DNA of 64,000 bases, taken from contig CM059441.1 of the NCBI GenBank assembly GCA_030390025.1, positions 4,774,001 through 4,838,000 of the forward strand, written 5' to 3'. The number at the start of each line of letters is the position of its first letter. Position 1 is the stretch's first letter. Under the pieces are notes generated by a model. The model was not told the DNA's origin and made no database searches. It saw only the letters and a program-made list of their open reading frames with translations. The position numbers and the translations under genes were made by a program. This document shows positions 4,443-64,000 of the stretch, one piece after another. This stretch comes from Squalus acanthias (lineage: Eukaryota).

Positions 4443-23810
<19,368 letters not shown>

Positions 23811-24723
23811 TTTGAACGCTGGGCGACGCCGTTGGGCCGCGTCACTGCGGAGCGCGCCGAGCGCGCCGAGCATGCGCACTCGCCGCGGTTGCGGGCTCGC
23901 AGTGCGCGCGCACTCGATCACAAGGCGGCCGGAGCGCGCGCTGCAATAAAGGGAGCGCAAGTTGTCTGCGCATGTGCGGATCAGATGCCGCCCTATCTAT
24001 GGAGAGGTTCCAGTGGCACAATAGCCCTAGGCAAGGCAAGGCAGGCAGTGGAGCATCTGCTGGGTTACTGTGGTGGCATTATCAAATGTACACTTTTTCC
24101 TAAGTCTCAAAATTATAACTCAAAGTTTGCAATTAAAAAGTGTCAGATAGTGCCATTTTAAAATAAAGTCCAATACATTAAAATTTCCAGTCCTGATACA
24201 GGGTTACATCCAGGCATCTGTATCTTTCCCTCAGGGACCATGATGCGGAGATGCCGGTGTTGGACTGGGGTGGAAATGATCGAATGATCGAACGAATAAT
24301 GCCGTAAAATGGGTTTTTTCTTGGTTTATTGGAATAAATGTTATTTGTAGCATTTAATTGGATTATGATGGTGCTATGTGTTTGTACACTGGTGTTGAAA
24401 TGGGTTTTGTTTTATGTGGAGTTAACTTTGAGATTTATTATTTTTAAATCTAAAAAGTTGTGTGTATTTAAGGGTATTTGTACTGTAAACATTATTGATT
24501 ATTTGTAAAAGTAATCATTGCATTTATATTAACTAAGGCTGTTTTTAAGGCTTTAGTTTTTACTGTGATGGATGAATGTAATGGATTTACTATGTAATGG
24601 ATTTACTATGTAATTGATGAGTTGTACAGGTATTATTGTTTTTGAATAAAAGAGTTGGACTGGGGTGGACAAAAGTGAGAAGTCGCACAACACCAGGTTA
24701 TAGTCCAACAGTTTTATTTGAAA

Positions 24724-26831: not shown

Positions 26832-26837
26832 TTTATT
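26832..26837 (-). terminator. Putative MLN polyadenylation signal AATAAA
   Basis: tttatt on the + strand, downstream of the MLN stop. Confidence 0.65.
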
Positions 26838-26940
26838 AATTACTAAACATCACTATACATAAGTTTCCCACAACTTTTTATGTACAGATACAGCACTTAT
26901 GAATTATACATCGACGTTTAACCAGTCTGATTTGTTGATG

Positions 26941-26948
26941 TCATTGGT
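26941..26948 (-). CDS. MLN: MLN last coding exon (D-Q-stop), followed by a short 3' UTR
   Basis: Long T-tract + aacag acceptor, TGA at 26943-26941, AATAAA about 105 nt downstream. Confidence 0.75.
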
Positions 26949-29900
26949 CTGTTAAAAAAAAAGATTGAAATTGCTTTTAGTGTTTATACATCTTTCAACA
27001 TAATATTATCCTCACACTATCAAAGCATTAGAAATAAAGTTTGATTTTAATATAATTTTTCTGTGGAAAAAAAGGACATGTGACAATTAATAGATTTCTA
27101 ATAGTATAGATAACTTTTCTGATAGGATATATTGGTCCTAAAATGACACCATGGGATACTAGCATCTAAACTTAGATTTCCAGCATCTGCAATTTGGTTT
27201 TTACTTCATGCCGTCATCTAAAACTATTTTATGGAAGTGTTAATCTGTTTAGAATAAATGGATTCATTCTTTCACTAAATCAATTTCATATGAATGCATT
27301 GAGCTTGTATCCGATGATTTAATTTTTGGGCCATAACTTTTATGCTTTTTTGTTTTCATTTACTCATACTGATTTGCTTGAGATAGTCTCATTACTATAA
27401 TGGGAAAATTCTAAATGATGTTGATAATCACTGAAAAGCTGGCACTCTGACAGGTTTTATTTCCCATGCTTATTAGAGTGTGTCAGCTTTTACATGAACA
27501 TTACAAATATTGTTTTTCTTATAGTTGGAGAGCACAGTTATAGGAGTGGAAATTTCATAAGAGCCCGATTAAAATTTGACAGTTTTGAGACTGCATACTT
27601 TTTTTTGATGAACTTGTTCAGAGATTTTCTCAAATATTTTGAAATATACATTTATATTTTATTAAATAAATATAGAGTTTAAAGACAATAGGAGAGTTGA
27701 TTTATCATTTTATCAAAACGTTGTTAGACCTACAGTGAAAATGGTGAGGTGAACACCAATTGGTCCAAAGAGCAAAAAAAAATACATGAAGTGTTTCTAT
27801 CATTTGTGCAGGTAAGCACAAAGCTATTATGAAAGTAATTTCAAGAAACTCTCAGGAACCCTCAAAGTCATAGGTGGGTAGGAGGTGGAGGGAAAGACTG
27901 AATAAAACCTATCTTACCATTTGTGCCTTCTGACAAAATGTTATTCAGCTGCTCACCAAGGAGTTCGCCATACTTCTGAAATTGTTTGCTATTCATCTTG
28001 ATTCCAATTTCAAAAGGAACACAGAACTGTACAAAATGTATAAAGAAGAAAATGACAAAATCAGATACTAATGTTTCCTGTGAACAAATAAGCGGCCACC
28101 ACAGCAACTTCAATTTATCTAGTGCCTTTAATGTAGAAAAAAAAACTCATGGTGTTTCACAGAGGTGTAATCAGACAAATTGGACACTAAGCCAAAGGAG
28201 ATGTTAGGAGCAGCGACCAAAAGCTTCATCAAAGAGGTGGGTTTAAAGGAGATGGAAAGGCACAGGGATTTAGGGAAGGAATTCTAAAGTGTAGGGACCA
28301 GGCAGCTGAGCACACAGTTGTCAACATTGGGGCAAAGAGAAGGGCTTACATAAGAGACCAGAATCAGAGGAACGTAGAGTTCAGGTGGGCGGGTACGTGA
28401 AATTATGTGGGAAACTTGACTTGACCACTTGTAGTGTCCCTACCTCCCACCCAGCTGTGATCAGCGCACAACCGGGATTGAACCTGGGACTGTTCTGTCT
28501 TGTTTGGCTCAGCAAGTTTATCCACTGTTTAGCTGAGCTATTGAGGGGGCCATTTTACACTTATTGTGCATTCTATTCAAAAGTAATAAAATTTAAATTA
28601 AAAAAAGGTGATTCAAACTTACCACATAAACCTACAAACTTTTAGATTAGTGGTTTTTAATAGTAATGAATTATTCTGTTGCATCTGCCACAACCTACAC
28701 TATCATTTTTTATGCTTCTAGAAGATAATATTTTACAATAGTATAATTGCATAGTGTTCATCAATAGAAAAACACTGTTAAACAATTTGTTCTTATTCAT
28801 ACTACAGCAGGAATGTTGTTCTATTTTGAATGTTGGTTGATGTATGCTTTAATTTCAATTGTTGGGCACTGTAACATTTTTGGGTCTTCTCTGTTTCTCC
28901 TATTCTGGACACTTCAGCTTCTATATTTTAGATTACTCTCATAGGTGAGTCTCCGCTTCCTTCAGTCTTGAGAGTATCTTCATGGGCCCTGATATCACAG
29001 TTATCGAGGTAAGTTTCTGATAGCATACCCGGGAAAACAAATAGAAAACTTTTCTATCAATTAGCTACTAGATCTACTCTGGGGCTTCAGAGAAAAAATC
29101 TTCTGGCTTTGAAAAATGGCATAACATCACAATATCAGACCTCATTTTGAATATCAGTAGACATTTTACTAACCAACTTCTTGAACAAAAAACAATAAAA
29201 AGTCACAATCTATATAGTAAGCTACTCTTTTGTAGATAACTTTTATGTATTCAGCTTTTTCTTCTAGTAGGCTTTTCTAACTGCAGGAGCTAGCTAGTCT
29301 AACCTCCCACTCTTGAAGCTTCCAAACAACTCAATTTAACACTATTCCAGTTAGCTCAACTTCATTCAGCTGAATTCAGTTCATTAAATAGCCCCAAAAA
29401 CAGCTGCTGGAGCATTCTGGATTTGAATAACTGTCAGATATATTCAAAAATAACTGGCAGTCACACACACAACTCAGTAAATCACAAAGCATATGTTTAT
29501 TTAAAAGTGGCTTGGTTCCTCTTTACAGCCTTTCAGTTGGAAAACCAGTCCAGACTGTCCTCACAGTGTTTGTATTGATTTAAGCTGGGAGATGGATTCT
29601 GACCACAGCTGTTTTCTAAACTCCCTTTTCTCTTGTGAATGAGTTAAAGGAACCTCTTCAAGCCAAAACAAGCTGAGAATGCTTCATTATTGTCACAGGT
29701 GCCTTCAGTAAGTTCTTACCAGTGTAAATATATGTTTAAGGAAGCAGTTTGTACAAAAAACGGTACTACTATGTTTGCATTTACATACCTTTATTACTTC
29801 TTTCATGTCCTCCGTACCCAACACTTCTGATAAGCTACTTTCTTCAGATCTCTGTTGGCGGTTCACTGGCACTTTTCTCCCCAGCCTGATTCTGTCATTT

Positions 29901-30265
29901 TCCTTTGCAACAAGAAGATATTGTTAAGTGGCATTTCGATTAGGGTAAATAAATCCTAACAAAACAGATACGAGTTTCTTGGAGCAAGATTGGACTATAT
30001 CTGTATTGTAATACTATGCATTTAATGTGACCCTTGTTTCTTCAGTAGTTGTGTATTACAAAGTTTCAAAGAGCAAATGGCACAATCAGCCACTGCTTAC
30101 AACACAAAGACTCAAGTATTTAAACTGTAAAATAAGTGTTTTACATACAAGCTTCTTTTGATAATCATTTGGGCTCAGGAAACTCAGGAAGCCCTCAGTC
30201 TCTTCAGCCAGCATTGCCACGACACAAACCACCAACAGGCTTATCATTATTCGCTTGGAAACCAT
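26941..30265 (-). CDS. MLN: Prepromotilin, 115 aa, 4 coding exons
   Basis: Exons 30265-30149 (MVSKRIMISLLVVCVVAMLAEETEG FLSFLSPNDYQKKL), 29902-29789 (ENDRIRLG RK VPVNRQQRSEE...EVIK), 28026-27918 (FCVPFEIGIKMNSKQFQKYGELL...) and 26948-26941 (DQ*). All are GT-AG, 348 nt total. The signal peptide resembles motilin MVS(R/K)K...AML..TE(A/G), with a 22-residue peptide before a dibasic site; adjacent to LEMD2. Confidence 0.92.
27918..28026 (-). CDS. MLN: MLN coding exon 3 (motilin-associated peptide)
   Basis: gtacag acceptor, gtaaga donor, P-F-E-I-G-I-K-M-N-S-x-Q-x-x-K-Y motif. Confidence 0.92.
29789..29902 (-). CDS. MLN: MLN coding exon 2 (end of motilin, RK cleavage site, start of motilin-associated peptide)
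   Basis: caaag acceptor, gtatgt donor, QRSEE motif, 114 bp in phase 0. Confidence 0.9.
30149..30265 (-). CDS. MLN: MLN coding exon 1 (signal peptide and first 14 residues of mature motilin)
   Basis: Acceptor at 30274-30273, ATG at 30265, gtatgt donor. Confidence 0.92.
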
Positions 30266-30380
30266 CTTTGACCTGAAAGCAAAAAAAAAAATTATTTTCA
30301 AAGAATGAATAAATGCTTTAACCCAGATCAGTCAATCTGTATGAAAAATACACCACAGCAGTAAATAATGTATCCATATA

Positions 30381-30848
30381 GTGTCAGCTGTGGCTCAGTG
30401 GGTAGCACACTCGCCTCTGGGTCAGAAAGTTGTGGGTTCAAGTCCCACTCCAGGGATTTGAGCACATAAATCTAGGCTGACGCTCCAGTGCAGTGCTGAG
30501 GGAGTGCCGCACTGTCAGAGGTGCCGTCTTTCGGATGAGATGTTAAACTGATGCCCCGTCTGCTCTCTCAGCTGGACGTAAAAGATCCCATGGCACTATT
30601 TCAAAGAAGAGCAGGGGAGTTCTCCCCGGTGTCCTGGGGCCAATATTTATCCCTCAATCAACATCACTAAAAACAGATTATCTGGTCATTATCACATTGC
30701 TGTTCTTGGGAGCTTGCTGTGCGCAAATTGGCTGCCGTGTTTCTCACATTACAACAGGGACTACACTTCAAAAGTACTTCATTGGCTGTAAAGCGCTTTG
30801 AGGCATCTGGTGGTTGTGAAAGGTGCTATATAAGTGCAAGTCTTTTTT
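30381..30848 (+). mobile_element. tRNA-derived Deu-domain SINE (SacSINE1-like) in MLN intron 1; older copies at about 1005-1405, 7620-8025 (-) and 25150-25680
   Basis: Pol III A box (tggctcagtgggtag) and B box (gggttcaagtccc), Deu-like core (cggatgagatgttaaac...aaagatcccatggcact), L2-like tail gctatataagtgcaag. Confidence 0.8.
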
Positions 30849-31704
30849 TCCATATATCCATTCGTTCATCCAGACTTACACACAGTTCAGCAACTATAAT
30901 TGGTTGGAGATGTTAGGTACTAATTTCAAACCATGAACAATCAACATTACATTTATTTAAATATCAAATATCTTTGGGATGAATTATTGCAAATGTTAGA
31001 AAGACACACAACAAACAGATCCAGGATTTGTTTAAAAAAAAACTGTTCAGAAACACAACAATTAATTTGTACTAAAGACTTCAATAAAGTTTGATTCAAA
31101 ATTAACTGGATTTCTATGCCCACAGTAATACTCAGTTCACAGCCCAAACAGCAAAATGTTTTTCTTTCAAGTAAAGCAATCAATAGCTTCTGATCTGAAA
31201 AACAGATCAATCTTCATTCCTCCGGTGAGATTAGTTCCTAATCCTACCCTTAGAAATGACTCTTTACACATAGGTTTAAAGCTATAATTTTGAAAGGATT
31301 TACTTTTCTCTGCATTTACAGTCCCCCTCCCCCTTCCAGTGCAAATAAAAATTGCTCAGAGAATCTTGGATCTCCAGAGAAAAATTATGCACTCCCACTC
31401 CCACTCTCAAGACACTTAAACATAAATGATCAGAAGTGGAGCTCAGCACAAGCCTGTAAACAAGTATATGCAGAGCTCTCTTCTTGGCAGGATAAATGAC
31501 TACAACTTAGTAAGAACCGATACTTCAGGACAAGTCGCTGCTGTATAGATGCATCCTGAGGAAAAAGCAGCCACATTTGAGATTAAAGCAGGCGCAGGTT
31601 TATGACTTGACTATAACTCCCCATAAATGCATTCATCAAACCACATTCACATTTCTAAATCCTTTATAAAAAATACAGTACTGATATCTAAGCGCAGTAT
31701 TTAC

Positions 31705-31788
31705 CGTTGTGATTTGTTCCTAGTTGAGTTCTCTGCTGTGCAATTCTCCTTTTAAGATAGCTAGCTTGCTTGCTGGGCCTTTTATATA
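31705..31788 (-). promoter_or_regulatory. MLN TATA box (TATATAAAA, 31788-31780) and short non-coding first exon (about 31757-31705)
   Basis: TATA followed about 75 nt later by donor ACG|GTAAAT; the ATG-bearing exon has an acceptor just upstream of the ATG, which requires an upstream non-coding exon as in mammalian MLN. Confidence 0.65.
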
Positions 31789-34700
31789 GTTGGGAGGTAA
31801 TTATTTTATTGTATGGATCTTCCTTGTACCGTAGCAATATAAAGCATTGCCTTCTGAAACCAAAAAAACCTCCATTAAAATATTTAGTTTTCATAGAAAC
31901 AAAGGTGTTTCCTATTCTCTATAATTACCCTTAAAAGCACACATCCTTGAAATGCAATAAATATTAAAAATATTACTTGTAGGTTTGTATTCAAAAATCA
32001 CATTACAATGTGATGACAGTTAATGTATATTGATTGATAGATTATTCAGTTGTCCAGATTATTCAGTTGTCCAGATTTGTGCAGTATTATTTTTATGGGT
32101 TGTATTTTTTTGATAATATTAGCATTAAAGTCATTATCCAAATGTCAGTGTTAATTTCTGCTTTACTATATTTTTATTTATTACAGATTTAGCATTTTTA
32201 AAAGCCAAATCATAGGTTCAGTTTAATTTTCTAAATGAAAAATAAACCAAAAAATATTTTTCTGTCCAATTAGGAGCAATATTATTGGTAACAACATTAG
32301 TGAAAAATGTTATAAGTTAAAATCAAAGTTGTAGATTTCAAGTTCTGATAGATACCCAACAATGTTTTATTTACATTAAAAGAAACTGTCTGATCTTATG
32401 TAGGCATAGCATGCCATTGTGTGCTTCTGATATTCGCTGGATGCCAATTTCACAATTTCACTAATCTGTAAAAAAGATAAAGAAGTTTTTTCATACGCCT
32501 CCTAGGCCTGAACAATTCTATCACCTTTGCATTGATTTAAATGGATTTTGGGTGTCCAACAATGTGAAAGCGGCAGCAGAGCTCAGGTATCAGATTCAAA
32601 TACGTGCACTAAACCAACTGATGTGAGACTCCCTCCGAGAGGCCTTCTCACACTGGTTTGAGTTTTCACCCACTGCAGTATTACTCCAGCGCCATGTGAT
32701 ATTCTATTGTAAACATGCCCAGGCAATCCACCTGGGAACTTTCAAAACTTTGAATTGAATCTTTTTAATATTCTAATATTATGAGAGAATGAATTCTCCC
32801 AGCTTCTCAATTTGTTCGCAAATTGTAACCAGCGCTTATAATGATGGCACGAGTAAGGGTGCATTGATTCAATGGTGTGAAGGACTGGAATAGGCAGCCT
32901 TACCCTGCTTTGGGTCATTGATGCCAAAGCTGGTTTAAAAATGTAGCTCTCCTGAGCATGTTATACACTTGCACAGAATTGAATTAAATGTTTAGAGAGT
33001 GCAGACATTTCCACTCACACTTTCAAAACATTTAAAATTGATGATTGGAAAGGGAGCTTAGCACGTGCCAGTAACCACACACATCCAGTTCTTTCCTGGG
33101 CAGGAGAATTCCAGCCTGAGCCAAGAAATACAACTGTCAACTTCTTGGCTCGAACAGATACTTCAAACTGATAGCTGCTGCATAAATGCACTCTAAGAAA
33201 GAACAGTTATACTTGAGGTTAAAGTAAGGACAAGTTTATGATTTGACTATAACTCCTGTAAAGTCGTACTTAAAAAGTGCCCAGGCAATCCACCTGGGAA
33301 CTTTTAAAACTTTTTGTGACATCTTTGTTAATATTATGATAGAGTGAACACTCCCAGCTTCTCTCTACTAACATTAAAAATGAGCTACACAAAAAGTAGA
33401 CTTCCGCGCATGTCTCCAAGAGCATAGATCTTTTCTGGCTGACCGTACTGGGTCCTGGAAAGATATGCATCTAGCAGTCTAACTCTGGTCTTCTAGCTGT
33501 GCATTGCGGTCCACAGATACCAGCCTGAGACTGGGAGTTGCAGCATAATGGCAGCCCCAATGACCAGGCTCCCTCATTAATTGTAACTCTGGATTTCTGC
33601 ACTAATGGAGACAGATTGCAATTTATAAAAGTGAGAGTTTCCCCCATTAATACAGGTTGTTATAGAAGTGTTTAACTTTAACATACAGATCAGGAAGATC
33701 ACGAGTTTGATCCCCAACTCTGCTGTTAGCTGATAGTAATCAGATGGAAATAGAGACATTTACAATTCATCTCAGTCTTCCTGGGTTAGAGGGGGGAAAT
33801 CAGCTAGGAATTAGGCATGTGATAGCTATCCAGTAATGCCTGCTGGAAGTTCACTTGTGTCCGCAGAGGACAGGATCAATCTTGTCAATAATACCCACCT
33901 CAGTCAAATAGCCTGGTGACTGTCGAGGCTCGCGCATTAAGAATGGTCACTTGGTCAAGAAATACAGAATGATTGATACCTGTGGAAATGTACCTCATCG
34001 AGGAGTTAATGCCTTCATCAGAGGAGGAGAGAAGAAAATTGGGTGCATCATATTAGGCAGCACGCTATATGAACTGTGTAAGTGGGACAATATAGAGAAC
34101 ATTGATAAGAATCAATCAGAAAAATACTAGTTCACAGGATAGGCAACACTGACAGTTGAAGGAATCAATAAAACTAACTTCAGCTGTTTCTATAAAACTG
34201 AAATTAGATACGGAATAGACAAGTGATTATATTGAAATAAATAACTTTTGGATTCAAGGTTATTTGATAAATATTTGAATTGTTGCAAATTTTTATTAAT
34301 CAAACTACATTTCAGTGTTTAATGCTTAATGCTATGTTATTTGCAGAAGTTAAATGCATTTTTGTGTAGCCTTTTAATAGTTTATGAAATATAGCGTATA
34401 TACAAAAATACTATACTATCTCTGCAAAGTCTTTTCTAGCTGCTCCATATTGTAGTACATTCCTGTAGCTTATATTGAGTTCCATAGATCTGCTGTCAAA
34501 ACAGCAGTGTACAACCGCTTCTGTCAAGAACTGATGTAAAAATAGTGGCCTCACTAGGGAATATGGCATTCGATTTTATTACAGCATTAACAAGTGTTGC
34601 ACTGAAGGAAACTGGGAACCTCACCAAATACTCTAATGCCTTTGTAAAAATACACAAAATAATCCATCTCACTAATAACTGCAATAAATACAGGAAGCAC

Positions 34701-39473: not shown

Positions 39474-40631
39474 ATGGGTGGCACCTTGGCTGCCTTAGAT
39501 TGGACCTTGGATGAGGAGCAATATGATCATTAGCAGCAACATCAGCCTGCTGTTGACAGACCTGCAGCTGGACAGCAGAGAGGGGAGCAGTAGAGGGGTG
39601 CAGCTCCCAGGAGGCACTACCTGCGGAACACGGTGTACAGAAAGAAGCAGCGCTTCCGAAAGCTCAGGTTGTCGTGTCAGGTGGTGGCTGACATCTGCAG
39701 CCTCCTAGAAGAAGACCTGCTCCTTGCTGGACCTGGTGGCCACGCATTACCAGTGGCTGTCAACGTGACCACTGCCCTCAACTTTTTTGCCTCCGGATCC
39801 TTCCAGGGCTCTGCCGGAGACACACCCAGGATCTCCCAGTCAGCTGCTGCCAAATGCATGAGACAGGTGACTGATGGGTTGTTTGGCAGGGCTGGCAATT
39901 ATGTAAACTTGGCCTGTGATGATGCCAGTCAGAATAGGTGGCTGCTCAGGTTTGCGCTTCTGGCTGGCTTCCCACAGGTGCAGGGCATCATCGGCTGCAC
40001 ACATGTGGCAATCCAGGCCCCCCCCAGATCAACCAGGAGTAATCGTGAATCAGAAGGGATTCCACTCCATCAATGTGGAGCTGGTGTGCCACCACAGAAA
40101 AAAGATGTCTTTGTGTGTGCACAAGATTCCCAGGGAGCTGCCATGATTCTTTCATCTTGCAGCAGTCCAAGCCCCCTGACGTCTTTGGACCTGAAAGCAG
40201 ACTGGCTGCTAGGAGACAAGGGAGACCCCTTTCAAACTTGGTTGATGACACCCATGAGACACCCAACCAATGAACCCCAAGAGTTGTACATTGAAAGCCA
40301 TATGATCACCAGATATGTCATTGAGCAAGGGATCGGCATGCTCAAGATGCGCTTCAGTTGCCTGGAGAGATCTGGAGGTGCCCTTCCACTCACCGGCCAG
40401 GGTCCAGAAATGATCGTGGTGTGATGTGCTCTGCACAACATTGTGCAGCAGCGAGGATTGGAGCTGTAGGAGGAACAAGGCGCAGAGCACATATCATGTG
40501 CGGACGAATCGGAGGAGGAGGAGGAGGAGGAGGAAGAGAAGGAGAAAGATGACGATGCTAATGCAGCACCAGCCACTCACATTGCTGCCTGGGCTACCAG
40601 GGATGCCCTTATTAATGCAAGCTTCAGTTAG
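39474..40631 (+). pseudogene. Harbinger DDE transposase pseudogene
   Basis: Motifs are split over several frames (for example NQKGFHSINVELVC and RFPGSCHDSFIL lie in different frames), with in-frame stops; the first catalytic Asp of the GxIDCTH motif is replaced by Gly. Confidence 0.88.

Positions 40632-52230: not shown

Positions 52231-64000
<11,770 letters not shown>

Follow-up and report, generated by a model that had tools for sequence, protein, structure and literature searches.

The window, a 64,000-nucleotide stretch of the Squalus acanthias genome (contig CM059441.1), carries on its minus strand a five-exon motilin gene (MLN) that adjoins a LEMD2-type gene. The first exon (31705-31855) is non-coding and was delineated by a GT donor together with contigs covering 31703-31852 (run X1) and 31715-31855 (run X4); a 203-nucleotide X1 contig joins it to exon 2. 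Because contigs cross a TATA-like box at 31779-31786, within the exon 1 region, the 5' end and start site of the gene are uncertain. The coding part of exon 2 (30265-30149) specifies a 25-residue hydrophobic leader (30191-30265, with its ATG at 30265) that ends in ETEG, followed by the first 14 mature residues (30149-30190), which begin FLSFLSP with the Phe1 codon at 30190 and include an internal Lys-Lys at residues 12-13. The leader aligns with those of named shark promotilins, a homology from which we infer cleavage of the signal peptide after ETEG. Exon 2 closes with a phase-0 GT donor, and the 246-nucleotide intron 2 (29903-30148; phase 0, GT...AAG) divides the mature peptide after residue 14. 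Exon 3 (29902-29789) supplies eight further residues, namely residues 15-21 and Gly22, the predicted amide donor (29879-29902), and then Arg-Lys, the predicted convertase site (29873-29878); its remainder (29789-29872) codes for pro-region with a possible second cleavage site, RQQR before SE. Exon 4 (27918-28026), placed by contig joints, encodes the motilin/ghrelin-associated peptide domain (PF04643, 38 bits against a cut-off of 22), and exon 5 (26834-26948), placed by the joint 26948/27918 in one X2 contig, holds the final two codons, the stop and the 3' UTR. By exon arithmetic, the precursor has 115 residues.

Splicing of the gene is seen in contigs from four public runs, which we took by guess to be RNA: intron 2 is skipped exactly in three of the four (X1, X2 and X4, from two studies), intron 3 in two and intron 4 in one (X2). 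These contigs differ from the MLN exons by 0 or 1 base. The translation and the contig joints thus bear out the sequence-only reading, which had placed a spliced mature peptide at 29873-30190: its coordinates were exact, and the exons, leader and Gly-Arg-Lys are present as it described them. A SINE-like high-copy repeat lies inside intron 1 (30380-30850).

About 3 kb downstream of MLN and on the same strand lies an open frame (22344-23996) that holds the LEM domain (E = 1.7e-14) of a LEMD2-type first exon. LEMD2 is also the neighbor of mammalian MLN. This exon contains an in-frame 36-nucleotide tandem array on the minus strand (22642-23315; 18.7 copies, 78% match) coding for 12-residue repeats rich in Ser, Asp, Arg and Tyr, as well as a 21-nucleotide Pro-Ala-Tyr repeat at 23502-23604.

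MLN exons 2 and 4 are present twice on C17, the contig that holds the window, at a distance of 52 kb. They belong to a tandem near-copy that takes in both MLN and its LEMD2-type neighbor. The two blocks, each about 51 kb long (G000:C17:4760409-4811117 versus 4811618-4863421; 1-37117 and 37618-64000 within the window), are 97.5-99.6% identical, with exons 2-4 identical, and abut precisely on either side of a 500-N gap. Since this pattern fits two haplotypes laid end to end, the second copy probably arose in the assembly, as a haplotype duplicate; near-identical blocks that meet at an N gap make a genuine recent duplication unlikely. Elsewhere in the window, a DDE_Tnp_4 transposase fragment, presumably Harbinger-type, lies on the plus strand at 39594-40421 (E = 8e-09).

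The gene is MLN and not GHRL, as the sequence-only reading had held, and its precursor layout, the tree, the LEMD2 locus and named shark orthologs agree on this. The exon 2 translation is 76-95% identical to motilin-like proteins named as such for seven chondrichthyans, reaching 95% with the promotilin-like protein of Heptranchias, and a profile search widened the set to 10 chondrichthyan species (named records in NCBI/UniRef) along with sturgeon and bowfin. The precursor shows the motilin succession of signal peptide, mature peptide, basic site and PF04643 motilin-associated peptide, and the mature peptide has the aromatic N-terminus (Phe1) and the length of about 22 residues (Gly22, then Arg-Lys) that are typical of motilins. 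In a tree of 38 precursors, which we picked from 230 and in which unnamed representatives carry our own labels, the chondrichthyan proteins, with close named shark orthologs in place of the window's own precursor, join the motilins apart from 14 ghrelins (support 100/100).

The mature-peptide model PF04644 matched neither exon 2 nor exon 3, nor the MLN locus in a genome search; genome-wide, it found no motilin or ghrelin exon above the cut-off and gave four weak matches, none of them a hormone exon, so that it is blind to the shark peptides. This model is non-discriminating here, because none of 14 fish motilin records lists it. The peptide has the ghrelin-type feature S/T-F-L-S-P at residues 3-7. 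We nevertheless rejected a GHRL identity: the first residue is Phe and not Gly, the protein groups with motilins, and the gene lies on C17 while a TATDN2-like gene is found on C20. Thus, the locus holds a real, ordinary chondrichthyan motilin. Among the database records, a Mobula protein that bears the name 'ghrelin-like' belongs with the motilins in both the tree and the alignment, and the Mustelus model has an insert of 15 residues that looks like intron 2 sequence read through.

Residues 3-7 read SFLSP in eight of the 10 chondrichthyan species and TFLSP in the other two, so that the core, far from being peculiar to this shark, recurs across the aligned chondrichthyan motilins, and the FLSFLSP start is their normal state. 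The corresponding residues are SFFSP in sturgeon and SFISP in bowfin; a table in PMC8419268 gives SFFSP for coelacanth and trout and TFFSP or AFFSP for most other teleosts that it covers. The sturgeon and coelacanth motilins depart from SFLSP at position 5 only. Positions 3, 4, 6 and 7 are hence an old fish feature, with Leu5 alone marking the chondrichthyan motilins. On the ghrelin side, Leu5 is invariant in 15 aligned sequences, and of the 146 ghrelin-type starts in the set of 230 proteins, 140 read GSSFLSP. Parsimony, applied without an outgroup, favors Leu5 as the ancestral state: a single Leu-to-Phe substitution in the motilins of bony fish would account for the pattern, whereas two substitutions are required if motilin started out with Phe5. 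Leu5 could also be convergent, a Phe/Leu exchange being one base change. The earlier proposal that the peptide keeps an ancestral motilin/ghrelin state therefore retains modest support, from parsimony and the shared core, and the FLSFLSP start was likely inherited from the motilin/ghrelin ancestor.

The pentapeptide by itself is within chance, with 0.23 occurrences of SFLSP per 51.5-kb six-frame simulation (60 simulations); it is real as a motif because it sits right behind the leader and is conserved in 10 species. Two further claims of the sequence-only reading need narrowing. Identity with ghrelin at residues 3-7 holds for bony-vertebrate ghrelin but not for the shark/ray ghrelin-like peptide, which starts GVSFHP; and the peptide does differ from mammalian motilin, the only motilin considered in that comparison, but its distinctiveness was overstated, since PMC8419268 already tabulates fish motilins that follow the pattern x-x-[ST/A]-F-F-S-P and are amidated at the C-terminus. 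Separately, a minus-strand frame reading FLSFLSPN, the first eight mature motilin residues, occurs at 427-450 and 52656-52679. It stands directly after a stop, without a leader, in a pyrimidine-rich, splice-acceptor-like stretch before CAG, and matches at 18 of 24 bases as read by eye. With FLSFLSP found in none of the 60 simulations, this second frame is an odd coincidence.

The PAM amidation signal, Gly followed by a basic site, is present as G-R-K at 22-24 of the window peptide. Across the other chondrichthyans, Gly22 is followed by a dibasic pair in 4/10 and by a single Lys in 2/10; Gly-basic is absent from the four remaining records (Callorhinchus, Mobula, Mustelus and Hemiscyllium), of which those of Mustelus and Hemiscyllium look like imperfect gene models. 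Sturgeon and bowfin motilins have GKK beginning at position 22. Eight of the nine fish motilins tabulated in PMC8419268 are given as amidated, a preprint infers amidation of zebrafish motilin (bioRxiv 10.1101/2023.06.03.543543), and zebrafish peptidomics has reported motilin-derived peptides (PMC12714231), although the passages drawn from PMC12714231 and the other cited papers contain no mass-spectrometric proof of a motilin amide. Amidation of a fish motilin is thus not new in kind.

We also searched for a ghrelin gene in the shark. Excerpts of the literature describe a shark/ray ghrelin-like peptide that starts GVSFHP and not GSSFLSP (PMC2803784), a cartilaginous-fish ghrelin paralogous, not orthologous, to the mammalian type (PMC6533539, citing Hara 2018), and a zebrafish ghrl that lies between CCDC174 and TATDN2 (PMC4797157). 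In Squalus, CCDC174-like and TATDN2-like genes are adjacent on C20 (G000:C20:10031000-10053000); the interval between them is free of N gaps, and no ghrelin exon was recognized in it. An insertion of about 6 kb, LINE-like, lies inside this interval, and a signal-peptide-like frame noticed there was discarded, as it lies in a CCDC174 intron. No motif or HMM match to ghrelin was found in 400 kb around the TATDN2-like gene, and coelacanth ghrelin as a genome query matched only the two MLN exon 4 copies. Genome-wide, the pattern GVSFHPR occurred 18 times, compared with 15 in the control, and no occurrence had a convincing signal peptide; the pattern A-G-S/T-S/T-F gave 58 matches, and 14 of those near the ghrelin core were inspected and lacked one; and a single match inspected among 100 of the 148 in a further pattern search was likewise without a signal peptide. 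Shark ghrelin was absent from the best 120 of 352 protein matches, and none was found by its N-terminus among 108 representatives. This negative result is weak, because the published shark ghrelin-like gene was missed as well, so that the search was without a positive control.

Genes for both receptors are present in the genome. GHSR is represented by its exon 1 (G000:C5, about 7.86 Mb), which matches human GHSR at E = 5e-117; an MLNR-like gene, likewise seen in its exon 1, scores 5.4e-91 against human MLNR versus 1.2e-88 against GHSR, a narrow margin. In an alignment over helices 1-5, with positions taken from excerpts of PMC10017046 and PMC12009760, the shark GHSR retains Ile4.60, Met5.39 and Val5.40, all three of them residues of the octanoyl cavity. 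Over the same helices, the MLNR-like receptor retains Phe4.60, which in human MLNR blocks this cavity (PMC10017046 and PMC12009760, in part), and has an aromatic Tyr at 3.28 where GHSR has Phe. Besides this Tyr, the MLNR-like receptor (L078:1114-1848; G000:C5, about 114.85 Mb) shows a very short second extracellular loop. Passages of the preprint bioRxiv 10.1101/2023.06.03.543543 report that synthetic coelacanth motilin binds and activates the GHSR of its own species, where its EC50 and Emax resemble those of ghrelin; they also align four shark motilins and propose that the GHSR feature is kept in Chondrichthyes. In the same passages, zebrafish and human motilins show no measurable binding to coelacanth GHSR and teleost GHSRs are barely bound by the motilins tested, so that this cross-activity is species-specific. 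In the open-access literature, we found no peptide or receptor data for shark motilin.

The sequence signals point to an amidated 21-mer as the likely product. As a convertase site, Arg-Lys with Val behind it is weaker than KR or RR, and we consider it unlikely, yet worth weighing, that the peptide is instead released at about 31 residues, by use of the downstream Arg site, or as a short form after cleavage at the internal Lys-Lys. The alignment places the QR-SE site in register throughout the family, and the site is KR or RR in five of 10 chondrichthyans, three of which are without Gly-basic, and the KK at 12-13 recurs in several species; against these points, the Gly-basic pair at 22-24 is common to sharks, sturgeon and bowfin and equals the mammalian KK site. 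A still less probable proposal, and one that we would regard as a long shot, is that GOAT octanoylates Ser3 and so makes shark motilin a second acyl-ghrelin. Of the three residues on which GOAT critically depends, the peptide has Ser3 and Phe4; Ser or Thr occupies position 3 in all 10 chondrichthyans; and a single zebrafish cell cluster expresses both ghrl and mlnl (PMC12714231, in part). But the third residue, Gly1, is here replaced by Phe. According to passages of PMC4443295, GOAT recognizes GXSFX with an unblocked Gly1; Gly1, Ser3 and Phe4 are critical, and Leu5, Ser6 and Pro7 are less important, which would make the ghrelin-like residues of shark motilin largely those dispensable for the enzyme. 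The MLNR-like receptor carries the cavity-blocking Phe4.60, the GHSR-active peptides purified from stingray stomach are of the GVSFHP type (PMC2803784, in part), and coelacanth motilin acts as a plain synthetic peptide (bioRxiv 10.1101/2023.06.03.543543, in part). The suggestion in the sequence-only reading that Ser3 may be modified is consequently not supported.

A more serious contender, though we still rate it well below an even chance, is a plain motilin that acts on MLNR only, with SFLSP reflecting shared ancestry or one convergent substitution and having no physiologically relevant action on GHSR, which would be served by the acylated ghrelin-like peptide. The genome does contain an MBOAT exon, which we take to be GOAT (in a PDB search it was a weak match to another MBOAT), and the shark GHSR keeps the three octanoyl-cavity residues named above. 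Further, the shark/ray ghrelin-like peptide is acylated on Ser3 and activates rat GHSR (PMC2803784, in part), and human motilin does not cross-react (bioRxiv 10.1101/2023.06.03.543543, in part). Coelacanth motilin, however, differs at only two of the first seven residues and is a full agonist at its own GHSR, and this in an animal that also has a canonical ghrelin. Shark motilin likely acts on the motilin receptor and, as reported for coelacanth motilin, likely on the ghrelin receptor too without a fatty acid. The dual activity raised from the sequence is therefore plausible, but it is already in print, shown for coelacanth and predicted for sharks. More speculative, and rather doubtful, is the extension that a canonical GSSFLSP ghrelin gene is missing from sharks and that motilin, the one shark peptide with the canonical core, is a main fatty-acid-independent natural agonist of GHSR and MLNR beside the divergent acylated ghrelin-like peptide. 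Should that absence be borne out, no shark peptide would come nearer to the canonical ghrelin core than motilin, shark GHSR signaling would be partly uncoupled from fatty-acid supply, and the peptide would offer ligand design for the ghrelin receptor a natural template free of an acyl group.

Our preferred reading, to which we assign a probability of roughly 0.6, joins these strands: a five-exon shark MLN gives an amidated, non-acylated 21-mer that is active at MLNR and GHSR, with an ancestral FLSFLSP start. The 115-residue precursor would lose its signal peptide and be cleaved at Gly-Arg-Lys, and the resulting 21-residue peptide, amidated and free of an acyl group, would activate the motilin receptor and also the ghrelin receptor, the hydrophobic Phe1-Leu2 possibly giving receptor entry without an octanoyl group. 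The core would go back to the common ancestor: the motilins of sturgeon, bowfin and coelacanth still have Ser3, Phe4, Ser6 and Pro7, and Leu5 has been kept by chondrichthyan motilins and by the ghrelins of bony vertebrates. The gene itself is routine, since shark motilin orthologs are already annotated and aligned in print, and amidation and GHSR co-agonism are published for related fish; SFLSP and the Gly-basic site of sharks may already be visible in the alignment of Fig. S1-S2 of the preprint (bioRxiv 10.1101/2023.06.03.543543). What the locus adds, with modest relevance to hormone evolution, is that cartilaginous fishes as a group combine the ghrelin core with the scaffold of motilin, in keeping with an ancestral ligand for both receptors. 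Shark motilin offers a ready test of the published prediction of GHSR activation.

Set beside known systems, the window gene is closest to the motilin-like proteins of other chondrichthyans (Heptranchias, Pristiophorus, Heterodontus, Scyliorhinus, Stegostoma and others), with which it shares the precursor layout and the FLSFLSP start (8/10), and in the case of Heptranchias also G-R-K. It differs from them in a few pro-region changes and in Asn8, found also in Pristiophorus, where other chondrichthyans have Ser8, but in no new kind of feature. Coelacanth motilin, listed as amidated in the part of PMC8419268 at hand, likewise has Phe1, Ser3, Phe4, Ser6 and Pro7, but has Ile2 and Phe5 in place of Leu2 and Leu5 and a different C-terminal half. 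The ghrelins of bony vertebrates resemble the window gene in SFLSP at residues 3-7 and in the PF04643 domain, and many of those from teleosts also end in Gly-Arg; they are set apart by Gly1, acylation of Ser3, a separate clade and a locus beside TATDN2. The elasmobranch GRLN-LP, as described in passages of PMC2803784, shares Ser3 and Phe4 and acts on GHSR, but it starts GVSFHP, is acylated and, in sharks, is without an amide.
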